Source of the DNA: Streptomyces virus StarPlatinum
Taxonomy: Duplodnaviria > Heunggongvirae > Uroviricota > Caudoviricetes
IMG/VR virus record: IMGVR_UViG_2974628900_000001
Span: 60,305-124,304 of that record
Length of the DNA stretch: 64,000 nucleotides
Reading direction: 5' to 3' (one strand)
Positions within the stretch are counted from its first letter, which is position 1, and the number at the start of each line of letters is the position of its first letter. The notes beneath the pieces are model-generated. The model saw only the letters and a list, made by a program, of their open reading frames with translations, searched no databases and was not told the origin of the DNA. Below, piece after piece: positions 27,465 through 54,187 of this stretch. The translations under genes were made by a program, and so were the position numbers.

Positions 27465-27542
27465 GGGTCTGACAGGTGTGACGTTACTGAAAGCCGACAA
27501 TGGACCGGTAACGGATAGTGGGTTCGACTCCCACCAGATCCA
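27465..27542 (+). ncRNA. tRNA-like element (acceptor + T-arm, non-canonical middle)
   Basis: gggtctg/cagatcc acceptor pairing and gtgggTTCGACTcccac T-arm, but no standard D/anticodon arms could be folded. Confidence 0.3.
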
Positions 27543-27562
27543 CTTGGTGATAATTCACCTAT

Positions 27563-27637
27563 GCTCCCATAGCCCAACTGGTAGGAGGCACAAGGCTTAG
27601 ACCCTTGGTAGTGTCAGTTCGAATCTGACTGGGAGTA
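27563..27637 (+). tRNA. tRNA, class I body with anticodon TAG (Leu-like anticodon)
   Basis: Acceptor gctccca/tgggagt, anticodon stem caagg/ccttg, loop ctTAGac, 5-nt variable loop (unusual for Leu). Confidence 0.55.
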
Positions 27638-27650
27638 CGCAAGAATTGAT

Positions 27651-27731
27651 GGGCTCGTGGTGGAATGGTATACACGCTAGTCTTAGGAACTAGTGCCGAA
27701 AGGATTGTGAGTTCGAGTCTCACCGGGCCTA
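27651..27731 (+). tRNA. tRNA-Leu (anticodon TAG), type II
   Basis: Acceptor gggctcg/cgggcct, anticodon stem ctagt/actag, loop ctTAGga, 13-nt variable arm. Confidence 0.7.
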
Positions 27732-27785
27732 CTTTGATATGTAACGTACGGCATATCAAATGCATATCAGGTCGCTCCTGATATG

Positions 27786-27901
27786 AGGAGTGTAGTTTAA
27801 TTGGCAAAACCGCGAAATGCAATGTCGAAAGCGTCTGTGGCGTGAGCCCACGGTTAGTAGATATCAAAGTAGCAGTTGCGGGTTCGAGTCCCGTCACTCC
27901 G
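27786..27901 (+). ncRNA. tRNA-like element with about 40-nt internal insertion
   Basis: Acceptor aggagtg/cactcc (1:72 mismatch), D-arm GTTTAATTGGCAAAAC, canonical T-arm gcgggTTCGAGTcccgt, but 65 nt between D- and T-arms. Confidence 0.3.
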
Positions 27902-28041
27902 CTAGCCTGAGATGACGATCCGATGTAGGTCCCCTAGGGCTTGCGCAGGCCCGAAGGGCATTCGGGAAAGGTGCCTAGCTAGGTCCGTCTACCAACAAGG
28001 TGAGAGTTTTTCACGGTTTTCCTCATAATTAAACCGTGTTT

Positions 28042-28113
28042 GGTCCTTTGGCAGAGATGGTAATGCACTCGGTTGAAGCCCGAGATATCTCAGTTCGATT
28101 CTGAGGGGGACCA
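28042..28113 (+). tRNA. tRNA-Phe (anticodon GAA)
   Basis: Acceptor ggtcctt/ggggacc, anticodon stem ctcgg/ccgag, loop ttGAAgc. Confidence 0.75.
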
Positions 28114-28117
28114 CAAT

Positions 28118-28181
28118 GAATAAGCCAGGAACGGTTCGATTCCGTGTTACCTAGGTTGGTGTATGGCGCATAGGCTTATTC
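28118..28181 (+). ncRNA. T-arm-containing stem-loop (tRNA fragment-like)
   Basis: 9-bp closing stem GAATAAGCC/GGCTTATTC enclosing aacggTTCGATTccgtt T-arm hairpin; too short for a tRNA. Confidence 0.35.
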
Positions 28182-28186
28182 AGCAA

Positions 28187-28257
28187 TCCGCAGTGGTGAA
28201 ATGGTATCATGCGACCTTGCCAAGGTTGTGGCGCGAGTTCGATTCTCGTCTGCGGGA
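28187..28257 (+). tRNA. tRNA-Gly (anticodon GCC)
   Basis: Acceptor tccgcag/ctgcggg, anticodon stem cgacc/ggttg, loop ttGCCaa. Confidence 0.7.
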
Positions 28258-28334
28258 CTTTGCCGGAAGATGATAGACTCTGGGGAAGGCCAGATAAATA
28301 ACGAAAGCGCGGTGCGAGTCCGTCAACGGTTTAT

Positions 28335-28407
28335 GCCTCGGTAGCGTAGTGGATAACGCGACTGTCTTCTAAACAGTTATAGGCAGGTTCGATTCCTGTC
28401 CGGGGTA
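28335..28407 (+). tRNA. tRNA-Arg (anticodon TCT)
   Basis: D gcgt/acgc, anticodon stem actgt/acagt, loop ctTCTaa. Confidence 0.8.
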
Positions 28408-28427
28408 CTTTCTACAATGGAGGCATC

Positions 28428-28613
28428 ATGCCTGTAACGATGACAGAGCTTTTTCTGGCCGGTGTGATCGAGCATCACGGAGTAGAAGATAACGGCGAAG
28501 CTCTCATAAAGATCAATTGGGACATCCTTCGTGAATACAACTATGATCTCTATGTTCACATGAAGGCGGCGGAGATTGACGCCGACCTAGATGGTGATAC
28601 AATGGAGCCATGA
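28428..28613 (+). CDS. hypothetical acidic protein
   Basis: 61-aa ORF with GGAGG RBS. Confidence 0.4.
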   Translation: MPVTMTELFLAGVIEHHGVEDNGEALIKINWDILREYNYDLYVHMKAAEIDADLDGDTMEP

Positions 28614-28937
28614 ATACATACGAAGTAGCTGTAAGCCTATTGGTTACAGTGGAAGCACCCGATGAGTCAGATGCAAGAGAAGCGGTCCGCGATGCATTTG
28701 ATGTTGGCGAGTTTTGCGGACTAGATGTTAAAGACGTAGAGGTCGAGATCCTTGAGTCTTGATTTCAATACGATCTCTAACATGGTTCAAGATGTAGAGT
28801 TCCTACTTAAGTGTACATTCTGTCCAGAACCAGCAACTACAGAGTTGACAGTAGAGGTTGGACCTGATACAGTAGTACCAATGCCAAGCTGCGAATCATG
28901 CAAGATTGCAGAGGCACAATGAGGCCGGAAGGCCAAT

Positions 28938-29009
28938 GGGCGATTAGTGTTAATGGTAGCACGTCTGTTTTGCAAGCAGATAGAGGGGGTTCGAGTCCCC
29001 CATTGTCCA
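28938..29009 (+). tRNA. tRNA-Ala (anticodon TGC)
   Basis: Acceptor gggcgat/attgtcc with G3:T70 wobble, anticodon loop ttTGCaa; GGCC-GGAA-GGCC hairpin upstream. Confidence 0.7.
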
Positions 29010-29174
29010 CAACTTCCTGCGCAGGAGGTGGTAACATGAGTCTAGAACGTGTGCTAGTGATTGTAATCCTAGTGATTCTAGTTGTGTGGCTAGCTGTCAC
29101 ACTGCTCTAAAAGAATTGGCTGGCCGATACGAACCCCATCGTATCCTTTGCCCGAGGGTTAGGGACCAGCATCT

Positions 29175-29247
29175 GATCCGGTAGCTCAGTCTGGCCGAGC
29201 GGAGGGCTCTTAACCCTTGGACGTGAGTTCGAATCTCACTCGGATCA
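29175..29247 (+). tRNA. tRNA-Lys (anticodon CTT)
   Basis: Acceptor gatccgg/tcggatc, anticodon stem gaggg/ccctt, loop ctCTTaa. Confidence 0.75.
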
Positions 29248-29256
29248 CATAAAACA

Positions 29257-29283
29257 CCCAGTCCCTTGTGGACTGGGTTTCTT
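29257..29283 (+). terminator. rho-independent terminator after tRNA-Lys
   Basis: CCCAGTCC-cttgt-GGACTGGG then TTTCTT. Confidence 0.7.
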
Positions 29284-29306
29284 AATTTCTGTGATACAAT
29301 TAAGAT

Positions 29307-29651
29307 ATGACAGAAGAAGAGAAGAAGCTTGCAAAGGCTGCCGCTCAAAAGCGGTGGTATGAAAAGAACAAAGAGAAGCATGCTGCGAACACTGCTAAAC
29401 GAGCTAAGCTTCACAGGGAGATAGCGAGAGCACATGTACAGAAGCTTAAGGAAGCTTCACCATGTACTGATTGCGGAAATCATTTCCCTCACTATGTAAT
29501 GCAATGGGATCATCTTGGAGACAAGAAGATGGACGTTAGCAGAATGGTTCAAAGCGGCAACTCTATTCAAACTATTGAGAAGGAGATTGCGAAGTGCGAG
29601 CCAGTATGTGCTAACTGTCATTGCATTAGAACGCACAATCGTAGACAATGA
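29307..29651 (+). CDS. HNH endonuclease (small, tRNA-cluster associated)
   Basis: CTDCGNHFPHYVMQWDH...CANCHCIRT; paralogue of 13069..13422. Confidence 0.7.
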   Translation: MTEEEKKLAKAAAQKRWYEKNKEKHAANTAKRAKLHREIARAHVQKLKEASPCTDCGNHFPHYVMQWDHLGDKKMDVSRMVQSGNSIQTIEKEIAKCEPVCANCHCIRTHNRRQ

Positions 29652-29655
29652 AATT

Positions 29656-30210
29656 ATGACTACACCAAAGAAGTACACACCAAAGCCCGGTGACATTGGG
29701 CTCACTCGTATTGGTGGTCTCACAGGCGTCCTAGTAGGTCTAGGGCAATTCATCATTAGAGACGCAAGCCGATACACCCACGTGTTTGTCGTATTGGACA
29801 ACAACGAAGTCATCGAAGCTATGCCTGGCGGAGCGATCATCAGTCCTCTGTCTAAGTATGAAGGAACTACCAAGTATGGTAGCCCTCTAGCTGCCTACCT
29901 CGACATCAAGTTGACAGCAGAGCAGCGAGCACGTATCGTAGAAGAAGCTAGACAGCTCGTAGGAACGCCGTACAGCTTCCTTGACTACATTGCTCTAGCC
30001 CTGGAACGATTTGGTTTCAATTGGAAGTGGCTAGAGAACTATGTCACATCTACCAAGCATATGATCTGCTCTCAGCTAGCTGATGAAGTATACAAGCGTG
30101 CTGGCGTTCATCTGTTCGAAGATGGTAGACTACCTCAGAAGGTCACGCCTGGTGATCTTACCTACGTTGGAATGGACCAGCGATATGAAGAAGAACTGCC
30201 TGGGCTGTAA
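29656..30210 (+). CDS. putative permuted papain-fold (NlpC/P60, YiiX/DUF830-like) peptidase
   Basis: His before Cys order (HVFVVLD ... MICSQLADEVY ... GVHLFEDG); start taken at ATG 29656 after HNH stop. Confidence 0.4.
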   Translation: MTTPKKYTPKPGDIGLTRIGGLTGVLVGLGQFIIRDASRYTHVFVVLDNNEVIEAMPGGAIISPLSKYEGTTKYGSPLAAYLDIKLTAEQRARIVEEARQLVGTPYSFLDYIALALERFGFNWKWLENYVTSTKHMICSQLADEVYKRAGVHLFEDGRLPQKVTPGDLTYVGMDQRYEEELPGL

Positions 30211-30376
30211 GAAGGACAAGCCTGTCAGTGATTTTGGAACGTCTGGCATGCAGAAGGCGTTGTGCAAGAGCTGCCGATCTGGTAGAGTAGTTTCCAGTGG
30301 GAAGAAGTCCGGTGGCAAGGGCCTTGTTGATGCCATTGGTGACTTGTTCGACGGGATCGGTGATCTGTTCTCTTGA
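30185..30376 (+). CDS. small Cys4 protein
   Basis: 63 aa, CLGC...CKSC, Gly/Asp repeat GDLFDGIGDLF. Confidence 0.4.
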   Translation: MKKNCLGCKKDKPVSDFGTSGMQKALCKSCRSGRVVSSGKKSGGKGLVDAIGDLFDGIGDLFS

Positions 30377-30553
30377 CAAGAACCAAGTTGCTTGCTATCT
30401 TGGACAGGAAGGCCAAGCTTGCTAAGCGAAAGATGTCAGAAGCCAATCAGCGTGATGACCGAATTGAAACTCGTGCATATGCTGTTGAGCTTACAGAAAC
30501 AAATGCCTTTATTCAGGCACTCAAAGGACTGACAAGTCTTAACTAGGAGAAAA

Positions 30554-30826
30554 ATGTACCTACGTGATAAGATTGTTGAAGTTCAAGGTGACGTGCTTGC
30601 TACCATCACTCGATGGCGTTATGATTACAAGGGGGCGCGCAGGGCGACAAAGCATCTTGCCAGCCTTCTTCTAATAAAAATGCTTGTTCTTGTTGCGGCC
30701 TTTGTGTTCAATGCAGCAGGAATGAGTCTGGCAGTCACAATCTGTCTTGCAACATCACTTGCTATAAGTGTTGTTATGTATAGCGTTTACGCTGTAGATG
30801 TCAAGCTTGAAAAGTCCAGAGCTTGA
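30554..30826 (+). CDS. membrane protein
   Basis: 90 aa, two hydrophobic helices. Confidence 0.45.
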   Translation: MYLRDKIVEVQGDVLATITRWRYDYKGARRATKHLASLLLIKMLVLVAAFVFNAAGMSLAVTICLATSLAISVVMYSVYAVDVKLEKSRA

Positions 30827-30859
30827 TGCTAGACTAAGTACAATGCCCGAAAGGGTTAT

Positions 30860-30935
30860 TCCGGTGGGGCTACTATTGGCAGTAGCGACGAGCTGTTAAC
30901 TCGTTTCCCTGTAGGTTCGATTCCTGCCTCCGGAG
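30860..30935 (+). tRNA. tRNA-Asn (anticodon GTT), copy 1
   Basis: Anticodon stem acgag/ctcgt, loop ctGTTaa, D gcta/tagc; acceptor has one T:T mismatch; GCCC-GAAA-GGG hairpin upstream. Confidence 0.6.
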
Positions 30936-31102
30936 CTGGCCGCCAAAGCTTGAGGAGATAGCTACCTCGGGCAAGGATAAACCGGATGGTAGGTCATAGT
31001 TTTCTAGATAAGCTATGACTGAGGACAAGGTGGAAACCCGGAGGCAAACCGGGGCACGGCCAACCACTTGACACAGTAGCTATCAACTACTAGGATGGAC
31101 AC

Positions 31103-31270
31103 ATGACAGAAAACGAAGGATACCTGGTTACCTCACGCGGGCTCTTTAAGGGTCTCTATAAGGATGAGGTAGTAATGAAGCAGGGTCGTCTGTGGGTCTG
31201 GTTCAAGCATGAAAATGGCAAGGAATGGGCTCTCCAGTGCCCTAACCAAATTGTAGTTGACACTGACTGA
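31103..31270 (+). CDS. small hypothetical protein
   Basis: TTGACA-17-TAGGAT promoter, AGGATGG RBS, 55 aa. Confidence 0.35.
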   Translation: MTENEGYLVTSRGLFKGLYKDEVVMKQGRLWVWFKHENGKEWALQCPNQIVVDTD

Positions 31271-31473
31271 CAAGCTTGACTCACAGCACGTAGATTCTAA
31301 GATCGAAGGGGTTTTACGTCTTTTCAAATTCCGGCGTCGAAGATGAAGAACAGTTTAGCGGCTGTACTTGTACAAGAGGAAGACGTTGAGTACAATCGTG
31401 CTAGAGTGAAAGAAGCTGACGGACAGCTTAGAGCAAGAGACCCGGCTCAAACGGGGAGTGCTGCATCCGACTA

Positions 31474-31546
31474 TGGCCTATAGCTTAATTGGCAGAGCGG
31501 TTGGTTGTTACCCAATCTGGTGCAGGTTCGAGTCCTGCTAGGTCAG
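31474..31546 (+). tRNA. tRNA-Asn (anticodon GTT), copy 2 (tentative)
   Basis: Acceptor tggccta/taggtca, D-arm GCTTAATTGGCAGAGC, anticodon stem gttgg/ccaat, loop ttGTTac. Confidence 0.55.
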
Positions 31547-31574
31547 CTCCAACAATGGCTAACAAAGGAATCAA

Positions 31575-33515: not shown

Positions 33516-33588
33516 GGGGTTGTAGCTCAATTGGAAGAGCATCTGCATGGCATGCAGAAGGTTGTGGGTTCGAGTCCCATCTTCTCCA
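33516..33588 (+). tRNA. tRNA-like (Ala GGC anticodon?) with mismatched acceptor stem
   Basis: D-arm GCTCAATTGGAAGAGC, anticodon stem tctgc/gcaga, loop atGGCat, T-arm gtgggTTCGAGTcccat; acceptor has two T:T mismatches (possible pseudogene). Confidence 0.35.
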
Positions 33589-33823
33589 CTCTTTTAATGG
33601 TTCTTCACAGAGGTGATAGTAACCATGCGGGTCAGCTCTAGCAGGCTGATATTGGGTGCAAGGTAATAGCCCGTATACACCCCTTGCAGCAGACGCACCA
33701 CATGTGCTAGCATGGTCTGTAGATGGCAACGAGCTGGTAACTTGAAGCCATCGATTATTTCCCGAGGAACTGACGCGCTATGCGCTAAGCCTCTATTCGC
33801 TGTAAGGTACCTTGCAGCGACCA

Positions 33824-33896: not shown

Positions 33897-33923
33897 CAAA
33901 GCAAGGTTGCAAACTTGCTCAAT

Positions 33924-33960
33924 CATGTTGGGGTTCGATTCCCTCTGGTGAAACAACATG
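33924..33960 (+). ncRNA. T-arm-containing stem-loop (tRNA fragment-like)
   Basis: 7-bp closing stem CATGTTG/CAACATG enclosing gggTTCGATTccc. Confidence 0.3.
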
Positions 33961-34021
33961 GTGTAATTGAGTAGGAAAAGGCGACGGCGGAATGAGCCGT
34001 GCTGTCTAGCCTCTCTCTTAT

Positions 34022-34789: not shown

Positions 34790-35584
34790 ATGGGATTCCT
34801 TTCCCGCAAGATTAAGCCGACCTTCGTTCCGGCTCAGAACCTTTCAGCGAAGAAGACTGTGACGCTTACTCCAATTGTGTCCGGTCAGCCTGCTGCGAAT
34901 GTCAGCCTGATTAAGCAGAATGGTGTCAGCTTCGAGAAGAAGGTTGAAAGCGCTGTCAAGCTACAAAAGGACGCTGGCGTTACAAACCGATTCGATGTAA
35001 TTGGCATGGTGGATGAATCCTACTCAATGGATTACATGTTCGCCGATGGCACGGTTCAGACGATCACTGAGCGAGTGCTTGCATGGACTGCTGGTGTAGA
35101 TGCTGACGGCATGGCACCGGTTGGTGGCTTTGCTAGCGGATTCCAGTGGCATGGTGAAATTGACCTGACTAACGTCATGGGTTGTGCATCAAGCTGGGGT
35201 TGCTGGGGAGGCACTGACCTTGCGGCTGGTCTTCGAGAGGCTTTCGAGGTTGCCAAGGATGCCGACAACCCTGTCTATCTGTTCATTGTCACCGATGGTG
35301 CTCCGAACGATCAAAAGGCTGTGATTGATCTAGTTTCTCAGATGAGCGAGTACCCGATCTTCATCAAGATTGTTCTTGTTGGTAATGACCCGATGGGTAA
35401 GCGTTTCGTTGAGTACCTGGATGACCTTGAGAAGCACGAGCCTGGTCGTCGTCTCTTCGACAATGTAGACACTCAGCACATCCGTGACGCCTCTCGTGTG
35501 AGCGATGACGATTTCAACAAGGCGATGACGGAGGAAGTTCCGTCTGCGATTGACGCAATGCGTCAGGTCGGTCTAGTCGCCTGA
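34790..35584 (+). CDS. vWA domain protein (second)
   Basis: MIDAS VDESYSM, later TDGAPND; upstream inverted repeats and GCGGGGAAC/GTTCCCCGC hairpin. Confidence 0.65.
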   Translation: MGFLSRKIKPTFVPAQNLSAKKTVTLTPIVSGQPAANVSLIKQNGVSFEKKVESAVKLQKDAGVTNRFDVIGMVDESYSMDYMFADGTVQTITERVLAWTAGVDADGMAPVGGFASGFQWHGEIDLTNVMGCASSWGCWGGTDLAAGLREAFEVAKDADNPVYLFIVTDGAPNDQKAVIDLVSQMSEYPIFIKIVLVGNDPMGKRFVEYLDDLEKHEPGRRLFDNVDTQHIRDASRVSDDDFNKAMTEEVPSAIDAMRQVGLVA

Positions 35585-36420: not shown

Positions 36421-36492
36421 GGTTGCAAGCCAGGGATAAGCTAGGCGGGCCTGTAAAGCCCTACCTCGTTGGTTCGAATCCAACTGCAACCA
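36421..36492 (+). tRNA. tRNA, class I body with anticodon GTA (tentative)
   Basis: Perfect acceptor ggttgca/tgcaacc, T-arm gttggTTCGAATccaac, anticodon loop ctGTAaa with 4-bp stem. Confidence 0.45.
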
Positions 36493-36494
36493 CT

Positions 36495-39243: not shown

Positions 39244-39522
39244 GGGGATGCCTTGGTTTCGACTGGGGTGGATGACTTTAGTTTGCAGCCTGACATTGAG
39301 GAGATGTCATTAAAAAGCCTCAAACCTATAAATGCCAACTCTAACGTTGCATCTGCCTACGCCCTAGCGGCGTGATGGCCGGGCGGCGACTGCCTAGGAA
39401 CAGAAAGTTGCGAATGTTTGGCCCGGTGGGGATAAACACATCGTAGTATCTGCTTGACACATGGCTGTGTATAGACTACTGTTTGAAGCATCAGGACGCG
39501 GGTTCGACTCCCGCCATCTCCA
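39244..39522 (+). ncRNA. ssrA: tmRNA (SsrA), tag peptide (A)NSNVASAYALAA
   Basis: 5' GGGGATGCCTTGGTTTCGACTGGGG and 3' GGACGCGGGTTCGACTCCCGCCATCTCCA parallel E. coli tmRNA ends; G3:U70 in acceptor; internal ORF GCC AAC TCT AAC GTT GCA TCT GCC TAC GCC CTA GCG GCG TGA. Confidence 0.85.
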
Positions 39523-39535
39523 CTTAAGGATCATC

Positions 39536-41016: not shown

Positions 41017-41027
41017 AAGGCCCTAAT

Positions 41028-41086
41028 GCTACGTAGCTTAATATGGCAAAGCAACTCTTGGCCAGAGTGTCATGTGGTTCGAACCC
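41028..41086 (+). ncRNA. degenerate tRNA-like element
   Basis: Acceptor gctacgt/tcgtagc and D-arm GCTTAATATGGCAAAGC present, but weak T-stem and 4-bp anticodon stem. Confidence 0.3.
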
Positions 41087-41176
41087 CATCGTAGCAGCAA
41101 TATCAATTAGACTTCATAATCACTCTCCTGTTATACTATAGATGCCTAATTCATCAGAGGCAGGAGGATTGATTAT

Positions 41177-41617: not shown

Positions 41618-41673
41618 TAAAAAAGGAGTTGACAGCCCCTATAGGTCTCTAGTAGACTAGCTGTCATAAGCAT

Positions 41674-41801
41674 GGCCCCAAAGAGCCACTAGCGGTCTAC
41701 GGTAGCGCTGCCGCCCGTTAGACTCCATGCGGCACCAGGCTTGTGCAACCGACGGGTTGAGAACATAAGCAAAGGGGAGGGTTCGAATCCCTCTGGGGTC
41801 C
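41674..41801 (+). ncRNA. long tRNA-like element (about 128 nt)
   Basis: TTGACA-18-TAGACT promoter upstream; ggcccca/tggggtc acceptor pairing and canonical T-arm gagggTTCGAATccctc separated by about 95 nt. Confidence 0.3.
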
Positions 41802-41872
41802 ACTATGATTATAAACTATGACCCTGGTTAAGTAGCTTGACAAGCTACACTACAACAACTAGGATGTGATGT

Positions 41873-43001: not shown

Positions 43002-44078
43002 ATGAAGTTCACCAAGATCTTCTCACAGGAGCTGCTTGACGAGATGATCTCAGAGGGCTATGTCCGGGCGCAATTTCATCCGGTTCTGCCTCTCAAGATT
43101 CTCAACTACTCCGAGAAGACTCAGTTCGCTGGAAAGTGGAATGACTGCACGCTTAACTGTCGTGGATTGATCGTTGACCTTGACGGCAACTTGATTGCTC
43201 GTCCTTTCATGAAGTTCTTCAACTTGGGTGACTCTCAGTCTGCACAACTTGACTGGGATGCTCCGGTTGAGGTTACGGACAAGAAGGACGGCTCAATGGG
43301 GGTTCTGTACTCATACGGCGGTGATTGGGCAATTGCGACTCGCGGCTCATTCATGTCAGACCAGGCGATTCACGGAACTCGTGTGCTAAATGAGCGTTAC
43401 AGCCACATCCAGTTTGTCTCAGACTACACTTTCATCTTCGAGATCGTTTACCCTGAGAACAGGATTGTTCTGGACTACGGTTCAATGGACGACCTGATTC
43501 TTCTGGGTGCGGTTCACAAGGAGTACGGTTACGTCTGCGGCCCTCTGGAGGCTCAGGCAATTGTTAATTGGGACGGGCCGGTGACGGAGGTCTTCAATTA
43601 CAACTCATTGCGTGAGGCGGCTGGAGCGCAGTACAGGAAGAACGCAGAGGGTTTCGTAGTCCGCTCTGGCAACAAGATGGTCAAGATCAAGCAGGCAGAT
43701 TACGTTGAGCTGCACCGCATGATCTCCATGCTTTCAGAGCGTTCTGTATGGAGCCAGCTCACCGAGGGCAAGACGATTCTTGAGATTTGTGAGGCACTGC
43801 CTGACGAGTTTCACGGGTTTGTCAAGGACGTTGGTGGCAAGCTTCTCACTGACTACGAGCGCATCGAGGTCGAGGTTTACGGTATCTACCAGAACCTTCT
43901 GACTTCTTTGGGCGAGGGTTTCACGCGACGTGACTTCGCAATGGCCGCAAACCGAATCGATCTCTACAGGTCTCACATGTTCAACCTGCTTGACGGGAAG
44001 AGCATCAATGAGCTAATCTGGAAGCAGATCAGGCCGGAGGCCAAGCGAGAGGACGTACACCCTACCAATGCAGGCTAA
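43002..44078 (+). CDS. rnlA: RNA ligase 1 (T4 RnlA-like) tRNA repair ligase
   Basis: NCRGLIVDLDGNLIARPFMKFFNLGD matches T4 Rnl1 ECRGIMFEMDGE..RPMEKFFNLNE; motif I KxDGS (TDKKDGSMG); FEIVYPENRIVLDY; motif V KMVKIKQADY. Confidence 0.85.
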   Translation: MKFTKIFSQELLDEMISEGYVRAQFHPVLPLKILNYSEKTQFAGKWNDCTLNCRGLIVDLDGNLIARPFMKFFNLGDSQSAQLDWDAPVEVTDKKDGSMGVLYSYGGDWAIATRGSFMSDQAIHGTRVLNERYSHIQFVSDYTFIFEIVYPENRIVLDYGSMDDLILLGAVHKEYGYVCGPLEAQAIVNWDGPVTEVFNYNSLREAAGAQYRKNAEGFVVRSGNKMVKIKQADYVELHRMISMLSERSVWSQLTEGKTILEICEALPDEFHGFVKDVGGKLLTDYERIEVEVYGIYQNLLTSLGEGFTRRDFAMAANRIDLYRSHMFNLLDGKSINELIWKQIRPEAKREDVHPTNAG

Positions 44079-44826: not shown

Positions 44827-45723
44827 GTGAAGATGCAGCTTCTCATCCTCCGGGGCGTTCCCGGTTGTGGTAAGAGCACCTGGGCACATGACGTGTGGCT
44901 GAGGGAAAACCCGAATGGTGTTCGAGTCAATCGTGATGACATTCGTATGCAGCTCTTTGGCCGGGAGACCGGAGTAGACGAGGAGCTTGTCACTCGAATT
45001 GAGCACGGAATGGTTGATGGGGCTCTGGCAAAGGGCTACTCAGTCATTGTCGATGACACGAACATCCGACACAAGTACATCAAGGAATTCGTAAAGATCG
45101 GTCAGCGTCACGGCGCTAGCGTTGCTGTAAAGCAGTTCGACGTTCCTCTTGAGACGGCAATTGCTCGAAACAAGGCTCGTGCCGAGTCCGGTGGTCGAGA
45201 TGTTCCTGAGTCTGTGATTCGTAGAATGCATCAGTCCCTTAAGTCTAGTGGAGTCTTCACTGATTTCCACACAGACGTTACGGCCGTTCGTCCTTACGAG
45301 CGTCCCGAAGGTGCAGAGAAGGTTTACCTCTTTGACATCGACGGAACTCTTGCTGAGATGAACAATCGTGATCCCTTCAATTGGAGGGAAGTTGGGACGG
45401 ATGATCCACGACGACAGGTGATCCTTACTGCTCAGGCTCACGCCAAGGCGGGATACAAGATCATCGTTATGAGTGGACGAGACGGCTCATGTCGCAATGG
45501 AACAATCGCTTGGCTGGATCTGTACGACATTCCTTTCTCAGAATTGCACATGCGTGCTGAGGGGGATATGCGTAAGGACTCCATCGTCAAGCAAGAGTTG
45601 TTCGATGAGCACATTCGAGACATCTACGATGTTGTGGCTGTCTACGATGATCGTCAGCAGGTTGTTGACATGTGGCGTGCGATGGGCATAGACTGTTTCC
45701 AGGTAGCACCCGGAAACTTCTGA
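44827..45723 (+). CDS. pnk: polynucleotide kinase / 3'-phosphatase (T4 Pnk-like)
   Basis: P-loop GVPGCGKSTWA, RVNRDDIR, HAD phosphatase motif LFDIDGTLAEMN, C-terminal QVVDMWRAMGIDCFQVAPGNF matches T4 [21 protein letters not shown]. Confidence 0.9.
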   Translation: MKMQLLILRGVPGCGKSTWAHDVWLRENPNGVRVNRDDIRMQLFGRETGVDEELVTRIEHGMVDGALAKGYSVIVDDTNIRHKYIKEFVKIGQRHGASVAVKQFDVPLETAIARNKARAESGGRDVPESVIRRMHQSLKSSGVFTDFHTDVTAVRPYERPEGAEKVYLFDIDGTLAEMNNRDPFNWREVGTDDPRRQVILTAQAHAKAGYKIIVMSGRDGSCRNGTIAWLDLYDIPFSELHMRAEGDMRKDSIVKQELFDEHIRDIYDVVAVYDDRQQVVDMWRAMGIDCFQVAPGNF

Positions 45724-48644: not shown

Positions 48645-48718
48645 GGCCCTGTAGCAGAATGGCATATGCGGCGGTCTCAAACACCGCGTCAATGTGGGTT
48701 CGAGTCCCATCAGGGCTA
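48645..48718 (+). tRNA. tRNA, class I body with anticodon CAA (Leu-like anticodon)
   Basis: Acceptor ggccctg/cagggct, perfect anticodon stem gcggt/accgc, loop ctCAAac, 6-nt variable loop; GGCC-gcaa-GGCC hairpin upstream. Confidence 0.55.
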
Positions 48719-48719
48719 C

Positions 48720-49044: not shown

Positions 49045-49062
49045 CAATGATATAATCTTCAC

Positions 49063-49356: not shown

Positions 49357-49470
49357 TGTTTTATTTGAACTGTAGTCGCTGTGGTCCCCACTATAGCGAC
49401 GACGACTACATGGAAGACGGAGTATGCGCCCCGTGCATCCTTGTAGAGATTACTGAGGAGTTGGGACTAT

Positions 49471-50057: not shown

Positions 50058-50323
50058 CAATGTTTCATCCGAAGCGCGAAGTGTATTACACCATTGACGC
50101 ATTCGATCTGAATGAGCTTGTCGAAGGTGAGTTCGGATTTGCTTGGGATTTCGTTGCTGCGGAAGAGTGCAGCAATGACAGTGCCCATGTGATTCATCCT
50201 GATTCAAGTGGTCTTAGTGAAGACGACGAGATTCAGTACGTTCCGGCTCGAACCATCATTGGTGAACTTGTGAAGCGAGAGATTCTTCCTTCTGGTAAGT
50301 ATCTCGTGGAGGTGTGCTGGTAA
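50048..50323 (+). CDS. hypothetical protein (tandem paralogue 2, C-terminus LPSGKYLVEVCW)
   Basis: 91 aa. Confidence 0.45.
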   Translation: MVVTMFHPKREVYYTIDAFDLNELVEGEFGFAWDFVAAEECSNDSAHVIHPDSSGLSEDDEIQYVPARTIIGELVKREILPSGKYLVEVCW

Positions 50324-50790
50324 TGGGTTGGGGATCAGGAACAAGCTACTTTGACGTGCCTCTAGATCTCATGCTAGAGTATGTCCCAGAAGACAAGCGC
50401 AAGGAAGTGGTTGAGGCTCTTTACAACCACGTGCGTGACGGAGACTGGGATACAGTTGACGAATCCGCATACTGGGATTTGCTTGTCGAATACGACATTG
50501 ACGGCTACGGAAAGTATAAAATGACCTACGTTCAGCGTGCCATTGAGACTCTTAGTGAAAGGCTGAGTCTTCCCAATGAGCTGATGGATCTGTATACCCT
50601 GCTTGTTCTTGTGAAGGGTGAAGAGACTACCCTCAAGGACGTGCACGATGCTTGGGCAATTTGGAAGAATCGGATTCGTCCAGATCATCACTCAATTATT
50701 CCATTCGAGGAGCTGACCGAAGAGGTTCAGCAGCTTGACAAGAAGTATGCAGATGCTATCATTGAGACTGCATATGAACTTGAGGACTAA
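50314..50790 (+). CDS. hypothetical acidic protein
   Basis: 158-aa ORF. Confidence 0.45.
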   Translation: MLVMGWGSGTSYFDVPLDLMLEYVPEDKRKEVVEALYNHVRDGDWDTVDESAYWDLLVEYDIDGYGKYKMTYVQRAIETLSERLSLPNELMDLYTLLVLVKGEETTLKDVHDAWAIWKNRIRPDHHSIIPFEELTEEVQQLDKKYADAIIETAYELED

Positions 50791-50992
50791 GCAAAGAAAT
50801 GTGGGCAAGTGTAAGTGTGGTCGGGATAAGCTAACTGGCCACCTTCGCACTTACAATGGATACGACAAGAATCTCTGTCCGCAGTGCAATGCTGAAAGAA
50901 TCATTTATGAAATCACGGGTCGCACTCCTGCTGACCATCTTGATAGCAATCGGAGCGCTGGGAAATCTGGCGCTGATGATAGCACTAAATGA
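50774..50992 (+). CDS. zinc-ribbon protein
   Basis: 72 aa from internal ATG; CKCGRD...CPQC. Confidence 0.35.
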   Translation: MNLRTKQRNVGKCKCGRDKLTGHLRTYNGYDKNLCPQCNAERIIYEITGRTPADHLDSNRSAGKSGADDSTK

Positions 50993-51023
50993 GGCAGAGC
51001 AGCAATTCGTAAAGGAAATAAAT

Positions 51024-51191
51024 GAGATACAGTGATATGCGCGAAGATATGCCGATCAAGCACAGGGAGACCGGCAGAACAGCAGTAATTGCTAAGGTCA
51101 AGAACGGTAAGTTCCAGATCGTAGACAGCAAGGGTCACACTGAAACGCTTGACAGATATTACGCTGGTGAGTGGGAGCGCAATGGCTAACG
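51024..51191 (+). CDS. small hypothetical protein
   Basis: RBS GTAAAGGAAA; 55 aa. Confidence 0.35.
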
Positions 51192-51550
51192 GAGAATCGA
51201 CCGGTCTTTCTAAGAAGGACCGGTCATTCCTGTCTCTTGCGATGGAGTTGTCTGCCAACTCTAACATGAAGCAGAAGCACGGAGCTGTCATTGTTAGGTC
51301 TGGTAGGGTTCTGTCCCGAGGCTGGAACACGTTGAAGAACGATCCTAGCAATGTCAGTGATGAGCACATTGAGCGCTTCTGCTCTGTGCATGCCGAAGCA
51401 ATGGCCATTGCCCGGTGCAAGAAGGCCGCTGGAGCAATTATTTATATCGCCCGGAGCAAGGATGGGCAGCCTGTTTTCTCAAAGCCCTGCGACGCCTGTG
51501 ACAAGGCGATCAGGCTTGCTGGCATCAAGCGCGTTGTGTATACGTCTTGA
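51182..51550 (+). CDS. CMP/dCMP-type zinc deaminase
   Basis: HAE zinc ligand (CSVHAEAMAI) and PCDACDKAI motif. Confidence 0.75.
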   Translation: MANGESTGLSKKDRSFLSLAMELSANSNMKQKHGAVIVRSGRVLSRGWNTLKNDPSNVSDEHIERFCSVHAEAMAIARCKKAAGAIIYIARSKDGQPVFSKPCDACDKAIRLAGIKRVVYTS

Positions 51551-51604
51551 CGAAGTGATCAGCACTGTGTTAATGTTGTACTAACAACGAACGAAAGGAA
51601 CGAC

Positions 51605-52375
51605 ATGGCAAAGATCATGATCGCTGGTGACTGGCATGGCGATACAGTTCATGCCCGTAAGACTGTCCGACGTGCGGATGCCATGGGTGTTCGTAAGATC
51701 ATGCAGGTTGGTGACTTCGGTTACTGGGAGCATGATGAGGATGGCGTTACGTACCTTGACGCTCTGAATGAGGAGTGCCGGAAGTACGGAATCAAGGTCT
51801 ATTTCGTTGCTGGTAACCATGAGAATTGGGATCGACTCGACTGGCTTGAGAAGAACAACCCCAAGACTTACAATGGTTTGACAATCATCCGAAGCCATAT
51901 CCGTTACACTGGACGAGTGAACCGGTGGCGTTTCGATGATCGTTGGTTCCAGGCTGTAGGCGGCGCGGTGTCAATTGACAAGAATCATCGTAAGCTTGGT
52001 AAGACTTGGTGGGCGCAGGAGGCTGTTCCGGAGAGGGTCGTCAAGACTCTTGAGATCCAGGGCAACCAGTCTGACATTCTTCTTACTCATGACTGTCCGA
52101 CTCATGCACCATTTGGTTTCCGGTTGAAGGATGATCCTGATTCAACGGCTCATCGTCAGCTCATGGACAGGGTGGGTCGAGTTGTTCGGCCTACATTGTG
52201 GTTTCACGGTCACTATCACACGTGGATGGAGAATTATCCATTCGCTCATCAGCTTGGTGAGGCCAGCGTTTACGGCCTTGAGATGAACGGGATGTTCTAC
52301 AACTACTGTGTTCTTGACACGAACAACCTGTCTGTCCAGACTGCTACTGGAAAGGTCAACCATCTGCTTGCTTGA
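51605..52375 (+). CDS. calcineurin-like metallophosphoesterase (Ser/Thr phosphatase-like)
   Basis: GDWHGD, GDFGYW, GNHE motifs in order. Confidence 0.8.
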   Translation: MAKIMIAGDWHGDTVHARKTVRRADAMGVRKIMQVGDFGYWEHDEDGVTYLDALNEECRKYGIKVYFVAGNHENWDRLDWLEKNNPKTYNGLTIIRSHIRYTGRVNRWRFDDRWFQAVGGAVSIDKNHRKLGKTWWAQEAVPERVVKTLEIQGNQSDILLTHDCPTHAPFGFRLKDDPDSTAHRQLMDRVGRVVRPTLWFHGHYHTWMENYPFAHQLGEASVYGLEMNGMFYNYCVLDTNNLSVQTATGKVNHLLA

Positions 52376-52461
52376 TCCGCCTCATAAACAAGTCTGTGTT
52401 ATTCTTTTAGAGAATTCTTCAAGAATGCGCAGACTTGAAGACAAGGAGGTGAAAGTAAAAG

Positions 52462-52827
52462 ATGGCAGATAACAAGGATTACCAGTACAAGTCTTCACAG
52501 GACGTTGTTGCACCACATCTTGACCCGCTAGCGGGCGAGGATGCAAAGCGTGCTGAGGAGGCCGGTGTAAAGGATTCCGCATACGTTGACTACGAGGTAG
52601 CTCTAGACAATTACCAGTCTCGTCCAGACGTTGAGACCCTAGCGGCTCGTCGTGCACGTGAGGCAGGTTGGAAGTTTGAAGATGCTGCATTCCGTCGTTC
52701 TGTAGAGGATGACGAGCTAACCGGTGGTGGTGTAGTAACCACTGACAATGCAACCGGAAAGACAGCTACTAAGGAAGACGCTAAGACTGATGCGAATTCC
52801 TCACCAGCTCGTAAGTCAAGCAAGTAA
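52462..52827 (+). CDS. hypothetical acidic protein
   Basis: 121-aa ORF. Confidence 0.45.
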   Translation: MADNKDYQYKSSQDVVAPHLDPLAGEDAKRAEEAGVKDSAYVDYEVALDNYQSRPDVETLAARRAREAGWKFEDAAFRRSVEDDELTGGGVVTTDNATGKTATKEDAKTDANSSPARKSSK

Positions 52828-52917
52828 TCAGACTTTGTAGTACAATTGAACAGGGAGGATCTTTCCTCTCTGTTCTTTTGTATCTTACAAACAAATAAGC
52901 ACTATCTAAGGAAAAAC

Positions 52918-53157
52918 ATGTCTGTTGTTCTGGATTACAATTCAGCCGATAAGTTCGTCACTGAGCAGCGCAAGCTAAACAATGATGTTCGATGGGAAGG
53001 CTGGACACTAGTATTCTTCCGCAAGAGTCGCAAGAATCTCGGTTGGAACAAGCGTGAAGGCGCTTACCGAAATGGCAACTGGGGCTTTGAGACTCGCGTA
53101 GCGGTGGACAATGATGGGAAGTGGAGGGTACCTTCTCGCAATGTCCGGAATTCTTGA
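52918..53157 (+). CDS. hypothetical basic protein
   Basis: RBS AAGGAAAAAC; 79 aa. Confidence 0.4.
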   Translation: MSVVLDYNSADKFVTEQRKLNNDVRWEGWTLVFFRKSRKNLGWNKREGAYRNGNWGFETRVAVDNDGKWRVPSRNVRNS

Positions 53158-53452
53158 ACAGAGGGGCATAAGTCCGGATGAAGTACAGTGGGAAGACTTG
53201 GCTCTGTGTCGTGGTCTTCCCACTTCCTTCTTCTTCGAGACTTACGAAGAGGATAAAATCTCTGCCCGATACGTAGATGAAATGTGCCTTCGCTGTCCAG
53301 TCATGAAGCAATGTGCAATGGCAGCCAAGGAGAACTCAGGCTTCGGAGTCTGGGGCGGCGTTTACTGGAACGCTGCTAGAGTAGACAAGTATCGCAATGC
53401 TCATAAGACTCCGGAAACATGGGAGAGAATCAAGGAAAGGCTGAGTGAATGA
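53141..53452 (+). CDS. whiB: WhiB-like (Wbl) Fe-S transcription factor
   Basis: Four Cys arranged LCRGLP...FFFE...CLRCPVMKQCAMAA, matching the WhiB C-x(n)-C-x2-C-x5-C pattern; family largely restricted to Actinobacteria and their phages. Confidence 0.6.
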   Translation: MSGILEQRGISPDEVQWEDLALCRGLPTSFFFETYEEDKISARYVDEMCLRCPVMKQCAMAAKENSGFGVWGGVYWNAARVDKYRNAHKTPETWERIKERLSE

Positions 53453-53757
53453 GCGTAGAGAATGCTTTTGCGCTCATGGCCGTAGATAACGCTAGGAAGG
53501 CGTTCAGGGAATTCAGGTTTGAGCCGGGTACAGGATTCACATGTGACCTTGTTCAATACCCTGCAACGCAGCACGACGTTCCTAACTTCGCTCTGCGAGC
53601 CTACAGCAGCACCTTTGATCACCTCTCTGAACACAACAGGATGTTGATCACCGAGCAGATCAGCGACCTGATTAAAAAGATCCGTTCTCTTGGTGTAAAC
53701 TGTATTTTGGAGGTCCATGATGCACCGGGAAAGCCAAGTGGTTCTGGTAGTCAGTGA
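53449..53757 (+). CDS. hypothetical protein
   Basis: 102-aa ORF. Confidence 0.45.
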   Translation: MSVENAFALMAVDNARKAFREFRFEPGTGFTCDLVQYPATQHDVPNFALRAYSSTFDHLSEHNRMLITEQISDLIKKIRSLGVNCILEVHDAPGKPSGSGSQ

Positions 53758-53892
53758 AGGTGTCTACGGAATTATCACCGAAGTTCATAGCTATATGTGC
53801 AAGGTGCAGTATTCCGTAGGAGGAATCGAATTCAACGAGTATTTCGATAACGATGACCTTGAGGTCATTGGAGAGATTGGATATGAAGAGGA

Positions 53893-54123
53893 GTGAGCGA
53901 ACTGGTTTGTCAGATTTGTGACAAGCAAAGAAATTCACTGGTGAATTACAAGTCACGGCTCAATCCATCCATGGATTTCGTGGTTTGCTCCGAATGCGCG
54001 GCAAACGAACGTGAGCCTAGATGGCTTATAATTCTGATGGCTCGTTCAGGCACCAACGTAGACAGATGGCGAAACGATAGACTCTACGTTGGTGGAGACA
54101 TCACCGATGAACATTTGAATTAA
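53893..54123 (+). CDS. zinc-ribbon protein
   Basis: 76 aa, CQICD...CSEC. Confidence 0.45.
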   Translation: MSELVCQICDKQRNSLVNYKSRLNPSMDFVVCSECAANEREPRWLIILMARSGTNVDRWRNDRLYVGGDITDEHLN

Positions 54124-54129
54124 GCCATC

Positions 54130-54187
54130 AGGCCGGGTATACTAGCCAAGACTAGGGAACTATGGGGTTCGAATCCCTACCGGCCGC
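54130..54187 (+). ncRNA. mini tRNA-like element lacking D-arm
   Basis: 6-bp acceptor aggccgg/ccggccg, CTAG-ccaaga-CTAG hairpin, canonical T-arm tggggTTCGAATcccta; only 58 nt. Confidence 0.3.

Follow-up and report, generated by a model that had tools for sequence, protein, structure and literature searches.

Results

The window analysed here is a 64,000-nt stretch of Streptomyces phage StarPlatinum (cluster BE) that holds a large tRNA gene block. The T-loop word GTTCRANYC occurs 59 times in the window against 9.1 expected, and 9 of the 59 lie on the plus strand within gaps that carry no annotated feature. C74 without an encoded CCA characterizes 41 of the 42 tRNA genes, and the same signature is common to the elements designated E1, E2, E6, E7, and E9 and to the phage tmRNA. 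The same island encodes Ro60, an Rnl1-type ligase, a PNKP, and an RlaP-like nucleotidyltransferase. Judging from sequence comparison, the block also houses roughly six conserved tRNA look-alike RNAs that are unannotated here. A first-pass annotation, folded by eye, had listed tRNA-like loci with GGTTCGAnTCC-type T-arms and pairing ends, which we find at every one of them. The flagged set is of three kinds: decoding tRNAs, non-cloverleaf tRNA-like genes, and structured spacers with T-loop hairpins. All features given below with both start and end coordinates are on the plus strand.

When checked with ARAGORN and Rfam, two loci said to resist cloverleaf folding proved to be tRNAs, while those beginning at 27465, 27786, 41674, and 54130 were indeed non-cloverleaf. 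The hand fold was wrong at 33516–33588, where E8 (33516..33589; Rfam 60.5 bits) is an ordinary tRNA-Ala(GGC) with G3:U70 and A73. Only the acceptor stem is flawed, with two U.U mismatches; Pepperwood keeps all seven acceptor pairs intact, and Bmoc keeps one U.U. The fold was largely wrong at 41028–41086, where both programs call E7 (41027..41098; Rfam 37.4 bits), an annotated but non-canonical tRNA-Ala(GGC) whose T-stem is bulged or mismatched in StarPlatinum. In its relatives, the anticodon stem has 4 bp and the loop 6 nt (AGGCCA); its acceptor and anticodon stems covary, and in Bmoc and Enygma it is annotated as tRNA-OTHER or tRNA-?(gc).

The class-I (short variable loop) bodies with Leu anticodons are real. 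The UAG gene (27563..27638; Rfam 56.4 bits) and the CAA gene (48645..48719; Rfam 54.7 bits) measure 75–76 nt vs. 82–83 nt for the type II Leu genes. The former is kept in both genera, with both UAG genes short in Samistivirus, and the latter is kept in LukeCage and Enygma. A class-I body of 72 nt with Tyr anticodon GUA and an unusual D-arm (36421..36493) likewise exists. It is annotated in GenBank though called by neither ARAGORN nor Rfam; its interior is almost invariant, and its acceptor and T stems covary. ARAGORN also reproduced the reported duplicates (Asp, Pro, and Asn twice each, Lys CTT three times). Yet the accompanying claim that duplicates share anticodon arms and differ in D-arms holds only for two Lys(CTT) genes (81% identical overall), as the other pairs differ throughout. 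All of these genes were annotated already, and they are ordinary or merely odd decoding tRNAs.

By its alignment to the Rfam tmRNA model and its covariation, E1 (27465..27543) is a tmRNA reduced to the tRNA-like domain (TLD), with no tag reading frame. The first-pass annotation had marked it as non-cloverleaf, ending 1 nt earlier; ARAGORN makes no call here, and the best Rfam match is tmRNA. E1 comprises an acceptor stem with G3:U70, a D-loop analogue, an 8-bp helix 2a capped by an invariant loop of 16 nt (AAAGCCGACAAUGGAC), a T-arm, A73, and C74. It aligns with the tmRNA model from end to end (model positions 1–374) at 33.0–41.6 bits (E ~1e-12), which is below the gathering score, and the 306-nt mRNA and pseudoknot part of that model is replaced by 14 nt. 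In the alignment, 98.3% of cells are paired and six pairs are changed on both sides, for a covariation score of 0.265 vs. 0.110 when shuffled (0/500). Compensatory changes fall in all three helices, G3:U70 is invariant, and conservation ends sharply at G1 and at A73–C74, beyond which the flanks diverge. E1 also carries the AlaRS identity set (G1:C72, G2:C71, G3:U70, and A73). It occurs in 82 phage records and is annotated in none, and an unrelated viral contig from a metagenome has a homologue next to tRNA genes.

E1 falls into the same class as the TLD-only RNA published for mycobacteriophage DS6A. That tag-less tmRNA is described in Hudson, Lau and Williams 2014 (PMC4131195) and in PMC11915505, which cites Mao et al. 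2009. With a model of the E1 family, the DS6A RNA was the best outside match, at 36.9 bits vs. at most 26.9 for any tRNA. It has the same architecture, with G3:U70, A73, C74, a tmRNA-type D-loop analogue, a short-looped helix 2a, a T-arm, and no tag frame. Like E1, it can be aligned over the full Rfam tmRNA model at a score below gathering (43.2 bits) and is missed by ARAGORN, and the distal loops of the two share GAAA(A/G)CCG..AC..GG.AC. The host genus differs, however, and there is no blastn-level similarity. E1 is also embedded in a tRNA array of 43 genes, and the phage has a full-length tmRNA as well (39244..39523; ARAGORN; Rfam 92.5 bits; tag ANSNVASAYALAA) whose 3′ end is the same (...UCC-A-C), whereas a scan of DS6A with the Rfam tmRNA model gave no other tmRNA match. 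The earlier suggestion of a tmRNA-system mimic is thus borne out at this locus by the tmRNA alignment, the covariation, and the DS6A match.

E2 (27763–27902) consists of a leader hairpin directly 5′ of a tRNA-shaped body. The hairpin (27763..27785) has 9 bp, four of them with compensatory changes, and an invariant UCGCU loop, and it is kept as far as Coruscant. The body (27787..27902) combines a D-arm and a T-arm with a 6-bp acceptor stem, whose seventh pair is mismatched, and with G73 and C74. A long arm stands where the anticodon arm would be; it carries GUCGAAAG (27824–27831) and a hypervariable terminal hairpin. The report of a non-cloverleaf element with an insert at 27786–27901 was accurate apart from its end, as Rfam scores the body as tRNA (33.6 bits) only if 58 nt of the anticodon arm are spliced out. 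Ten of the 32 predicted pairs in leader and body show compensatory changes, and E2 is present in 83 phage records. In Coruscant, the homologue is a compact 74-nt tRNA-like RNA with a 7-nt loop, GUCGAAG.

The long arm of E2 contains the Ro60 motif GNCGAAN0-1G as defined by Chen et al. 2014 (PMC4201824). E2 resembles the Y RNAs YrlA and YrlB (PMC4201824; Rfam RF02553, RF00019) in joining a tRNA-like domain, with D- and T-arms and an acceptor-like stem, to a helix bearing this motif, and it lies on the same strand as the phage Ro60 gene. As in Mycobacterium smegmatis YrlA, only the first C of CCA is encoded. Unlike YrlA, where the order is permuted (T, acceptor-like stem-loop, D) and the motif precedes the T-arm, E2 has normal tRNA topology and the motif follows the D-arm, on the opposite side of the tRNA-like domain. 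E2 matched no Y-RNA covariance model and is 4.5 kb away from the Ro60 gene. The proposed Ro60 link was only partly upheld: E2 has the published motif, but the genes that resemble true Y RNAs, Y1–Y4 at 12472, 14273, 21053, and 21171, are outside the flagged loci. From their sequences, these four appear likelier Ro60 partners than E2.

E5 and E6 are orphans. E5 (41674..41803) is a 130-nt tRNA-like RNA, confirming the non-cloverleaf element first placed at 41674–41801 (about 128 nt). Its acceptor/T-arm minihelix carries three hairpins, A, M, and B, which occupy the places of the D, anticodon, and variable arms. The consensus folds and hairpins A and B covary; M is weak in StarPlatinum, and an alternative 5′ acceptor strand exists at 41721–41727. 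E5 is found in 58 phage records, with one annotation (tRNA-OTHER), and is precisely absent from Bmoc and therefore dispensable. A promoter-like site, TTGACA-18-TAGACT (41629..41658; 10/12 consensus matches), lies 16 nt upstream and is kept in Daubenski; three such sites were found in the region vs. 0.2 expected.

E6 (54130..54187), correctly noted as a 58-nt D-armless element, is built from a 6-bp acceptor, a 4-bp hairpin closed by a free 6-nt loop, and a T-arm, with G73 and C74. When StarPlatinum is compared with Samistivirus phages, all 52 non-loop positions match vs. 2 of 6 in the loop and 43–67% identity in the flanking coding sequence, and 86 records hold E6 at 90% identity or above. Because E6 shows no covariation at all and overlaps both a weak promoter-like match (TTGAAT-17-TATACT) and the end of a coding region, it may have a DNA-level or cis role. 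E6 and the 3′ part of E5 recall mascRNA and similar small tRNA-like RNAs that RNase P releases in size and outline, as an acceptor/T-arm minihelix without decoding function, and E6 shares the position at a coding region's 3′ end. mascRNA is eukaryotic, and the likeness is therefore one of form, not homology. Rfam gave E5 only weak matches (mascRNA, RF01684, 21.5 bits vs. a gathering score of 42.5).

The two closed T-arm hairpins reported at 28118–28181 and 33924–33960 are likewise present, each as part of a spacer. In E3 (28117..28182), which lies between the tRNA-Phe and tRNA-Gly genes, nine predicted pairs form a terminal stem around two hairpins, one with a T-loop (GGAACGG UUCGAUU CCGU..CC) and a small one containing GG. 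Three terminal-stem pairs show compensatory changes among four sequences, and the site in Enygma and L013 is occupied by another tRNA-like gene, whose anticodon loop has 6 nt. E4 (33900..34015) separates two tRNA-Lys(CTT) genes and forms three hairpins, the middle of which (33922–33962) encloses GGG UUCGAUU CCC and UCUGGUGAAA. Of its 29 predicted pairs, 14 have compensatory changes across Karimacvirus, Samistivirus, and Coruscantvirus.

Discussion

The non-cloverleaf tRNA-like genes recur in 58–86 records of related phages and show sharp conservation or compensatory base changes. We think it probable, from these comparative patterns, that they are selected tRNA mimics that are matured like tRNAs and act on tRNA-binding factors, rather than decayed genes. 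They appear to be conserved small-RNA genes that retain the upper part of a tRNA, where the acceptor stem stacks on the T-arm, and swap the decoding half for another module.

The elements could instead work only in cis, as tRNA-like punctuation for RNase P or nuclease cuts of long tRNA and mRNA transcripts, as transcript stabilizers, or as promoters, with the released RNAs functionless. Such a role would suit E3 and E4, as spacers between tRNA genes, E5, as it is flanked by two strong promoter-like sites, and E6, which lies between two coding genes and whose conservation extends into the upstream stop codon in addition to the promoter-like overlap. Still, the full AlaRS identity set, tmRNA D-loop analogue, and helix 2a of E1 are all unneeded by a cleavage signal, the invariant E1 loop and E2 motif are not required for RNase P recognition, and most other array spacers have no such element. 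This explanation is unlikely.

It is rather improbable that the elements serve, as decoys or sponges, to absorb anti-phage nucleases or toxins that the host directs at tRNA, with the phage Rnl1 ligase and PNKP repairing the real tRNAs. The anticodon loop is the usual target of such nucleases, and no element keeps a canonical one; moreover, we know of no host nuclease for the StarPlatinum system. The idea draws on context alone: the repair enzymes, Ro60, and RlaP-like enzyme sharing the island and the duplicated isoacceptors with divergent bodies. Phage tRNAs have been shown to counteract defences that cleave tRNA, and variant ones to evade them (van den Berg et al. 2023, PMC10264068; Azam et al. 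2024, PMC11555353). StarPlatinum is similar: its tRNA set is large, isoacceptors are duplicated, RNA repair enzymes adjoin, and some bodies are unusual (class-I Leu and Tyr here, 6-nt anticodon loops in relatives). The molecules in those papers, however, are decoding tRNAs with altered anticodon loops, whereas the core elements here cannot decode.

Decay of tRNA or tmRNA genes during array turnover, also raised in the first-pass annotation, is very improbable. The array is in flux, as seen in the replacement of E3 in Enygma and the absence of E5 from Bmoc, and the stem mismatches of E7 and E8 in StarPlatinum are absent from relatives. Nevertheless, retention in so many records, compensatory changes in E1, E2, E4, and E5, exact boundaries with unconserved flanks, and the invariance of E6 across genera while its coding flanks are ~50% identical largely refute this reading.

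Equally hard to credit are unusually shaped decoding tRNAs (with introns, without a D-arm, or with an enlarged or shortened anticodon loop) for recoding or suppression: this holds for the genes at 33516, 41027, 27563, 48645, and 36421, with 7-nt loops and sensible anticodons, and would fit the Coruscant E2 homologue (U33, A37, anticodon CGA), but the E1 loop is 16 nt, the putative anticodon bases of E2 are paired within a covarying stem, its insert is far below bacterial group I intron length and its excision leaves no anticodon stem-loop, the E6 loop is 6 nt and unconserved, and E5 has no 7-nt anticodon-like loop at the right position.

For selected tRNA mimics, the retained top half would let RNase P and 3′ processing release them from transcripts of the tRNA array, after which CCA would be added, as for the adjacent tRNAs. 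E3, E4, E5, and E6 are probably selected structured RNAs that, as a guess, bind factors recognizing a tRNA minihelix or elbow, or mark processing sites. Some elements may also be decoys for other factors, in keeping with the tRNA-decoy idea of the first-pass annotation. E2, by displaying a Ro60-contact motif on its long arm, may tentatively be an additional RNA bound by the phage Ro60 protein. For the DS6A-type RNA, inhibition of tmRNA has been reported in E. coli, in PMC11915505 for the DS6A RNA itself and in PMC4131195 for “a similar molecule”; for E1, this is a candidate role only, and the full tmRNA in the same phage fits awkwardly with simply blocking trans-translation. E1 would be charged with alanine and bind host SmpB and EF-Tu. 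As it has no tag reading frame, it would then either titrate SmpB, blocking host trans-translation, or rescue ribosomes without tagging.

Results

The window lies in record MH576965.1 (StarPlatinum, cluster BE, genus Karimacvirus), where window position equals record position minus 60304. Using ARAGORN, we detected 42 tRNA genes and one tmRNA in the window, all on the plus strand, and the GenBank annotation equals this set plus a second tRNA-Tyr at 36421. The T-loop word GTTCRANYC occurred 59 times in the window vs. 9.1 expected, which supports the core observation of the first-pass annotation that this DNA holds tRNA-like elements without a cloverleaf. After excluding tRNAs, the tmRNA, and scattered minus-strand or in-gene matches, nine T-loop words were left, all on the plus strand in annotation-free gaps (14315, 15028, 21102, 27522, 27882, 28134, 33933, 41781, and 54167), and elements already listed in that annotation account for six of them. 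Five elements, E1 (27465-27543), E3 (28117-28182), E4 (33900-34015), E5 (41674-41803), and E6 (54130-54187), received neither an ARAGORN call nor a match to the Rfam tRNA model (RF00005) at its gathering score, and E2 (27763-27902) reached that score only with 58 nt skipped. Two other entries of the by-eye list fared worse. The element at 33516-33589, said to be unfoldable, is called as tRNA-Ala(GGC) by ARAGORN and scores 60.5 bits against Rfam, and the same claim for E7 (41027-41098) mostly fails, given 37.4 bits and a marginal cloverleaf. A cloverleaf with a D-arm, 5-bp anticodon stem, and 7-nt loop was found at 33516, 27563, and 48645, and marginally at 41027. The finding is real but heterogeneous: part of the list is ordinary, E1 is a clear member of a rare known class, and several elements are well-supported orphans.

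The ordinary genes nevertheless include some odd decoding tRNAs. The sole defect of the tRNA-Ala(GGC) is a pair of U.U mismatches in its acceptor stem; the Pepperwood homologue forms 7/7 acceptor pairs, and that of Bmoc keeps one U.U. The class-I genes with Leu anticodons (UAG at 27563, CAA at 48645) score 55-56 bits and are conserved, and both UAG genes are short in Samistivirus. Because bacterial LeuRS can do without a long variable arm, leucylation of these bodies is plausible. The class-I Tyr gene at 36421 has an almost invariant interior with covarying acceptor and T stems, and its identity as Tyr is uncertain. In homologues of E7, the anticodon stem has 4 bp and covaries, and the loop is the 6-nt AGGCCA. 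We also note tRNA-like genes with 6-nt anticodon loops in related phages (Enygma locus L003 at 16458-16531, locus L013 at 8672-8745, and Bmoc locus L015 at 15003-15073), which are labelled tRNA-?(gt), tRNA-?(gc), or tRNA-OTHER; in one case the gene occupies StarPlatinum's E3 site. Duplicated isoacceptors are mostly unrelated in sequence (at most about 70% identity), with the exception of two Lys(CTT) genes at 81%. As context, published studies connect variant tRNAs of phages with evasion of defences that cleave tRNA (PMC10264068, PMC11555353).

The fold of E1 opens with an acceptor stem of 7 bp; a linker of 10 nt then leads to a helix of 8 bp capped by a 16-nt loop, and a T-arm completes the structure. 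It aligned to the Rfam tmRNA model (RF00023) over model positions 1-374, both ends included, at 33.0 bits (E 2.7e-12) and at 41.6 bits in a wider scan. The match takes in the acceptor and T-arm, the D-loop analogue (GG..U.GAC), helix 2a, the GGA junction, and the ...UCCAC terminus, with 14 nt in place of the 306-nt mRNA-like and pseudoknot part; because E1 lacks the larger share of the model, it stays under the gathering score of 47. With only 14-16 nt between the helix 2a strands, there is no tag reading frame and there are no pseudoknots. E1 carries G1:C72, G2:C71, G3:U70, and A73, an invariant combination that makes up the AlaRS identity set, and G3:U70 was invariant in 9/9 distinct homologues. 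Across ten homologues the flanks are unrelated, and conservation begins exactly at G1 and stops at A73-C74. The structure was paired in 98.3% of cells, with six pairs altered on both sides and four covarying pairs in helix 2a, and its covariation score of 0.265 compared to 0.110 in shuffles (0/500 as high) and at most 0.056 in slid controls. The 16-nt loop is invariant in nine BE-phage homologues and differs only in a metagenomic one, which lies on an unrelated viral contig and adjoins tRNA-Ser, Ala, and Thr. We found no sites complementary to this loop in the window. E1 was present in 82 phage records and annotated in none of 40 among the matches listed.

A relative of E1 has been described before. 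Hudson, Lau and Williams included an entry for "Mycobacterium phage DS6A (TLD only)", a tRNA-like domain without the rest of tmRNA, and stated that a similar molecule strongly inhibits tmRNA, perhaps through SmpB titration (PMC4131195); a 2025 update grouped the DS6A RNA with the tag-less tmRNAs of some organelles (PMC11915505). We placed the DS6A RNA at DS6A 28478-28560, where it gave an Rfam tmRNA alignment of the same kind at 43.2 bits. Conversely, a model of the E1 family found DS6A 28478-28558 as its best outside match (36.9 bits, E 7e-7), and no tRNA scored above 26.9 bits. Judged by sequence, E1 is a new member of the TLD-only kind, and the suggestion that one element mimics the tmRNA system is borne out by its G3:U70 and A73, D-loop analogue, helix 2a, lack of a tag frame, and relatedness to DS6A. 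It differs from the described case in that its phage encodes, in addition, a complete tmRNA whose 3′ end is the same as that of E1. We infer that E1 may be alanylated, bind SmpB, and affect trans-translation. No SmpB-like Pfam domain was detected in the scanned ORFs neighbouring the phage tmRNA. The 25.5 kb of Coruscant (76000-101500; loci L016 and L027) syntenic with the StarPlatinum tRNA island yielded no tmRNA and no homologue of E1. Because both were missing from this stretch, phages may acquire or lose the two kinds of tmRNA, tag-less and full, jointly.

E2 begins with a leader hairpin of 9 bp whose UCGCU loop is invariant. The tRNA-shaped body that comes next has a 6-bp acceptor stem (the seventh pair is mismatched), normal D- and T-arms, G73, and C74. 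A long arm replaces the anticodon arm and consists of two closing pairs, an internal loop, the stem UGUC/GAUA, GAAAG, a hairpin whose length and sequence vary even among close relatives, and UUAGUA. RNAalifold predicted 32 pairs, 10 of which showed compensatory changes spread over every helix class. E2 was found in 83 records, unannotated save for occasional tRNA-Tyr, tRNA-Thr, or small-ORF calls. Group I introns of bacterial tRNAs are roughly 200 nt or more and lie in the anticodon loop. The first-pass annotation had offered intron-containing genes as one explanation, but the E2 insert is short (about 45-60 nt, differing in length between close relatives), its putative anticodon bases pair in a covarying stem, and excision leaves no 5-bp stem with a 7-nt loop. 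We therefore rejected an intron as the nature of this insert.

The E2 arm also carries GUCGAAAG, with GCCGAAAG or GUCGAACG as the only variants. These fit GNCGAAN0-1G, proposed by Chen et al. as the Ro60 contact in bacterial Y RNAs (PMC4201824), and homologues vary at the N positions only; the motif was absent from E1, E3, E4, E5, and E6. In Coruscant, the E2 homologue is a compact 74-nt tRNA-like RNA with the 7-nt loop GUCGAAG. The Ro60 link raised initially is partly supported. E2 matched neither Y-RNA model (RF02553 or RF00019), and its arm order is normal (acceptor, D, long arm, T, acceptor) with the motif 3′ of the D-arm, unlike YrlA, which has a permuted T-arm, closed acceptor-like stem, and D-arm, with the motif near the 5′ end. 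It lies on the strand of Ro60 but 4.5 kb downstream, beyond the distance of about 4 kb used as a criterion for Y RNAs. For these reasons of model match, motif placement, and distance, the idea that E2 is a Ro60 ligand is suggestive but thin, and we regard it as a tentative possibility.

Four Y-RNA-like genes in the same window, none of them among the initially listed elements, would be likelier Ro60 ligands than E2. All are on the plus strand and were found through the motif and the sbRNA and Y_RNA models; the Rfam YrlA model RF02553 gave only an artefact across two tRNAs. Two carry a Y-RNA-like motif copy, GGGUCGAA(G/U)G...CGGUUAUC: a long bulged hairpin upstream of tRNA-Gly (12472-12560) and a gene with a T-loop 3′ of tRNA-Pro (14273 to about 14340). 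The other two sit between tRNA-Asp and the Ro60 operon and are unannotated in StarPlatinum. The gene at 21053-21160 is YrlA-like, combining GGGUCGAAUG and a CAACUUACCCA strand on the 3′ side with a hairpin and a T-arm, and that at 21171-21244 is a bulged hairpin matching the sbRNA and Y_RNA models (nematode Y-type sbRNA 32.1 bits and Y_RNA 16.5 bits at 21169-21241). The same pair lies ahead of Ro60 in Samisti12, NootNoot, Coruscant, Jada, and Sham, which represent other Streptomyces phage genera or species, and in Sham one of the two is annotated as a 62-nt tRNA-Ser(cga).

In the 130-nt E5, the acceptor GGCCCCA/UGGGGUC and a T-arm close a junction of hairpins A, M, and B. Covariation from genus to genus was seen for hairpins A and B, and StarPlatinum has only a weak M. 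The 3′ acceptor strand could instead pair with an alternative 5′ strand, GACUCCA at 41721, to give a nested 80-nt form (41721-41800) as a candidate alternative to the 130-nt one; this pairing is kept in relatives solely by one-sided C/U changes opposite G. E5 looks like its own transcription unit because a promoter-like site (TTGACA-18-TAGACT) lies 16 nt upstream and a second strong site lies 3′ of it. It was found in 58 records, annotated once (as tRNA-OTHER), and is cleanly missing from Bmoc. All variants hold an in-frame GCA...UAA/UAG reading frame. We rejected a small tmRNA, as the codon changes are those that preserve pairing in two covarying stems, E5 lacks G3:U70, and it matched none of the tmRNA models. 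Separately, Pepperwood (L014, about 14250-14330) and Bmoc (L015, about 15690-15770) carry another T-loop element, GGAGGTTCGATTCCTCC, that is missing from StarPlatinum. It lies upstream of the E5 site and has a promoter-like sequence, TTGACA-N17-TAGGAT, in front of it.

E6 (58 nt) is built from a 6-bp acceptor, a hairpin with the stem CUAG/CUAG, and a T-arm, with G73 and C74, and identity reaches 90% or more in 86 records. When StarPlatinum is compared with Samistivirus phages, 52/52 non-loop positions are identical, the hairpin loop retains 2/6, and flanking coding sequence is 43-67% identical. Because the stem is kept and the loop is free, this pattern argues for an RNA structure. The main rival for E6, and for E3 and E4, is a purely cis role as punctuation or promoter: E6 shows no covariation because there is no variation, and a weak promoter-like match overlaps it, which leaves room for a role at the DNA level. 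E3 has a terminal stem of nine predicted pairs, three of them compensatory, around two hairpins, one with a T-loop and a small one with a GG loop. In outline it resembles a tRNA elbow that lacks both the acceptor and the anticodon arm. E4 has three hairpins with 14 compensatory pairs, the middle one holding GGG UUCGAUU CCC beside UCUGGUGAAA. Both are selected structures, with weaker support for E3. As a common signal, the shared spacer motifs CTAGCC, TAGCCT, TTGCAA, and AAATGCA were rejected, showing no enrichment and no strand bias.

The tRNA genes share a further feature, as 41/42 have C at position 74 but no encoded CCA, and position -1 is mostly U. Across the phage, these flanks look like a signature of tRNA processing. 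N73-C74 is common to E1, E2, E6, E7, E9, and the tmRNA, which would fit a single 3′ maturation pathway that later adds CA, a route reported for YrlA of M. smegmatis, and we infer that the elements mature like tRNAs. The same island encodes a Ro60-like protein (21639-23267), a T4-like tRNA repair set made up of an Rnl1-type RNA ligase (43002-44078; PF09511, 63 bits) and a polynucleotide kinase-phosphatase (44833-45723; PF25109, 175.8 bits), a small nucleotidyltransferase that marginally matches the RlaP family of RNA-repair proteins (14433-14954; 22.2 bits, cut-off 23), and a vWA protein (34790-35584). Immediately 3′ of the nucleotidyltransferase gene is an unannotated tRNA-like element (14972-15049, plus strand; Rfam tRNA 30.3 bits) with a full 7-bp acceptor, T-arm, A73-C74, and CUGAUAA loop, and without a proper D-arm.

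Discussion

E1 belongs to a defined sequence family, the structures of E1, E2, E4, and E5 are under selection, as is that of E3 more weakly, and E6 is extremely conserved. For E3, E4, and E6, a purely cis role competes most seriously with a function in trans. For the elements in general, a role as decoys would be compatible with the context. Degenerate genes had also been suggested, but compensatory changes and conservation above that of the flanks largely exclude pseudogene decay. Decoding is excluded for E1, E2, E5, and E6.

These genes point to an annotation gap, as the tRNA finders used on phage tRNA islands skip genes that do not form a cloverleaf. Of the conserved RNA genes described here, at least six go almost entirely without annotation, although 58-86 related GenBank records contain them. 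The literature consulted on these phages consisted of genome announcements counting tRNAs plus one tmRNA, and we found no analysis of tRNA-like RNAs in it.

E1 extends the tag-less tmRNA from one mycobacteriophage and a few organelles to a large, genetically tractable phage cluster, and its presence alongside a full tmRNA makes phage inhibition or re-routing of ribosome rescue testable. E2 and the neighbouring Y-RNA-like genes offer a phage system for Ro60 biology, and E5 and E6, as clearly delimited orphans on which selection is strong, are promising places to look for new functions of tRNA mimics. A broader proposal, which we consider unlikely, is that BE-cluster phages carry a panel of tRNA mimics. 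Besides the tag-less tmRNA and the four Y RNAs, it would include the tRNA-shaped E2, whose anticodon gives way to a Ro60 motif, the mini-tRNA of 58 nt, the five-helix tRNA-like RNA of 130 nt, and the two T-loop "elbow" hairpins. If this were true, E5, E6, E3, and E4 would define new families of trans-acting RNAs, each element would address a different host tRNA-binding factor (e.g., tRNA-directed immune nucleases, processing enzymes, or ribosome-rescue factors), and the tag-less tmRNA and the phage's own tmRNA would jointly take over trans-translation.
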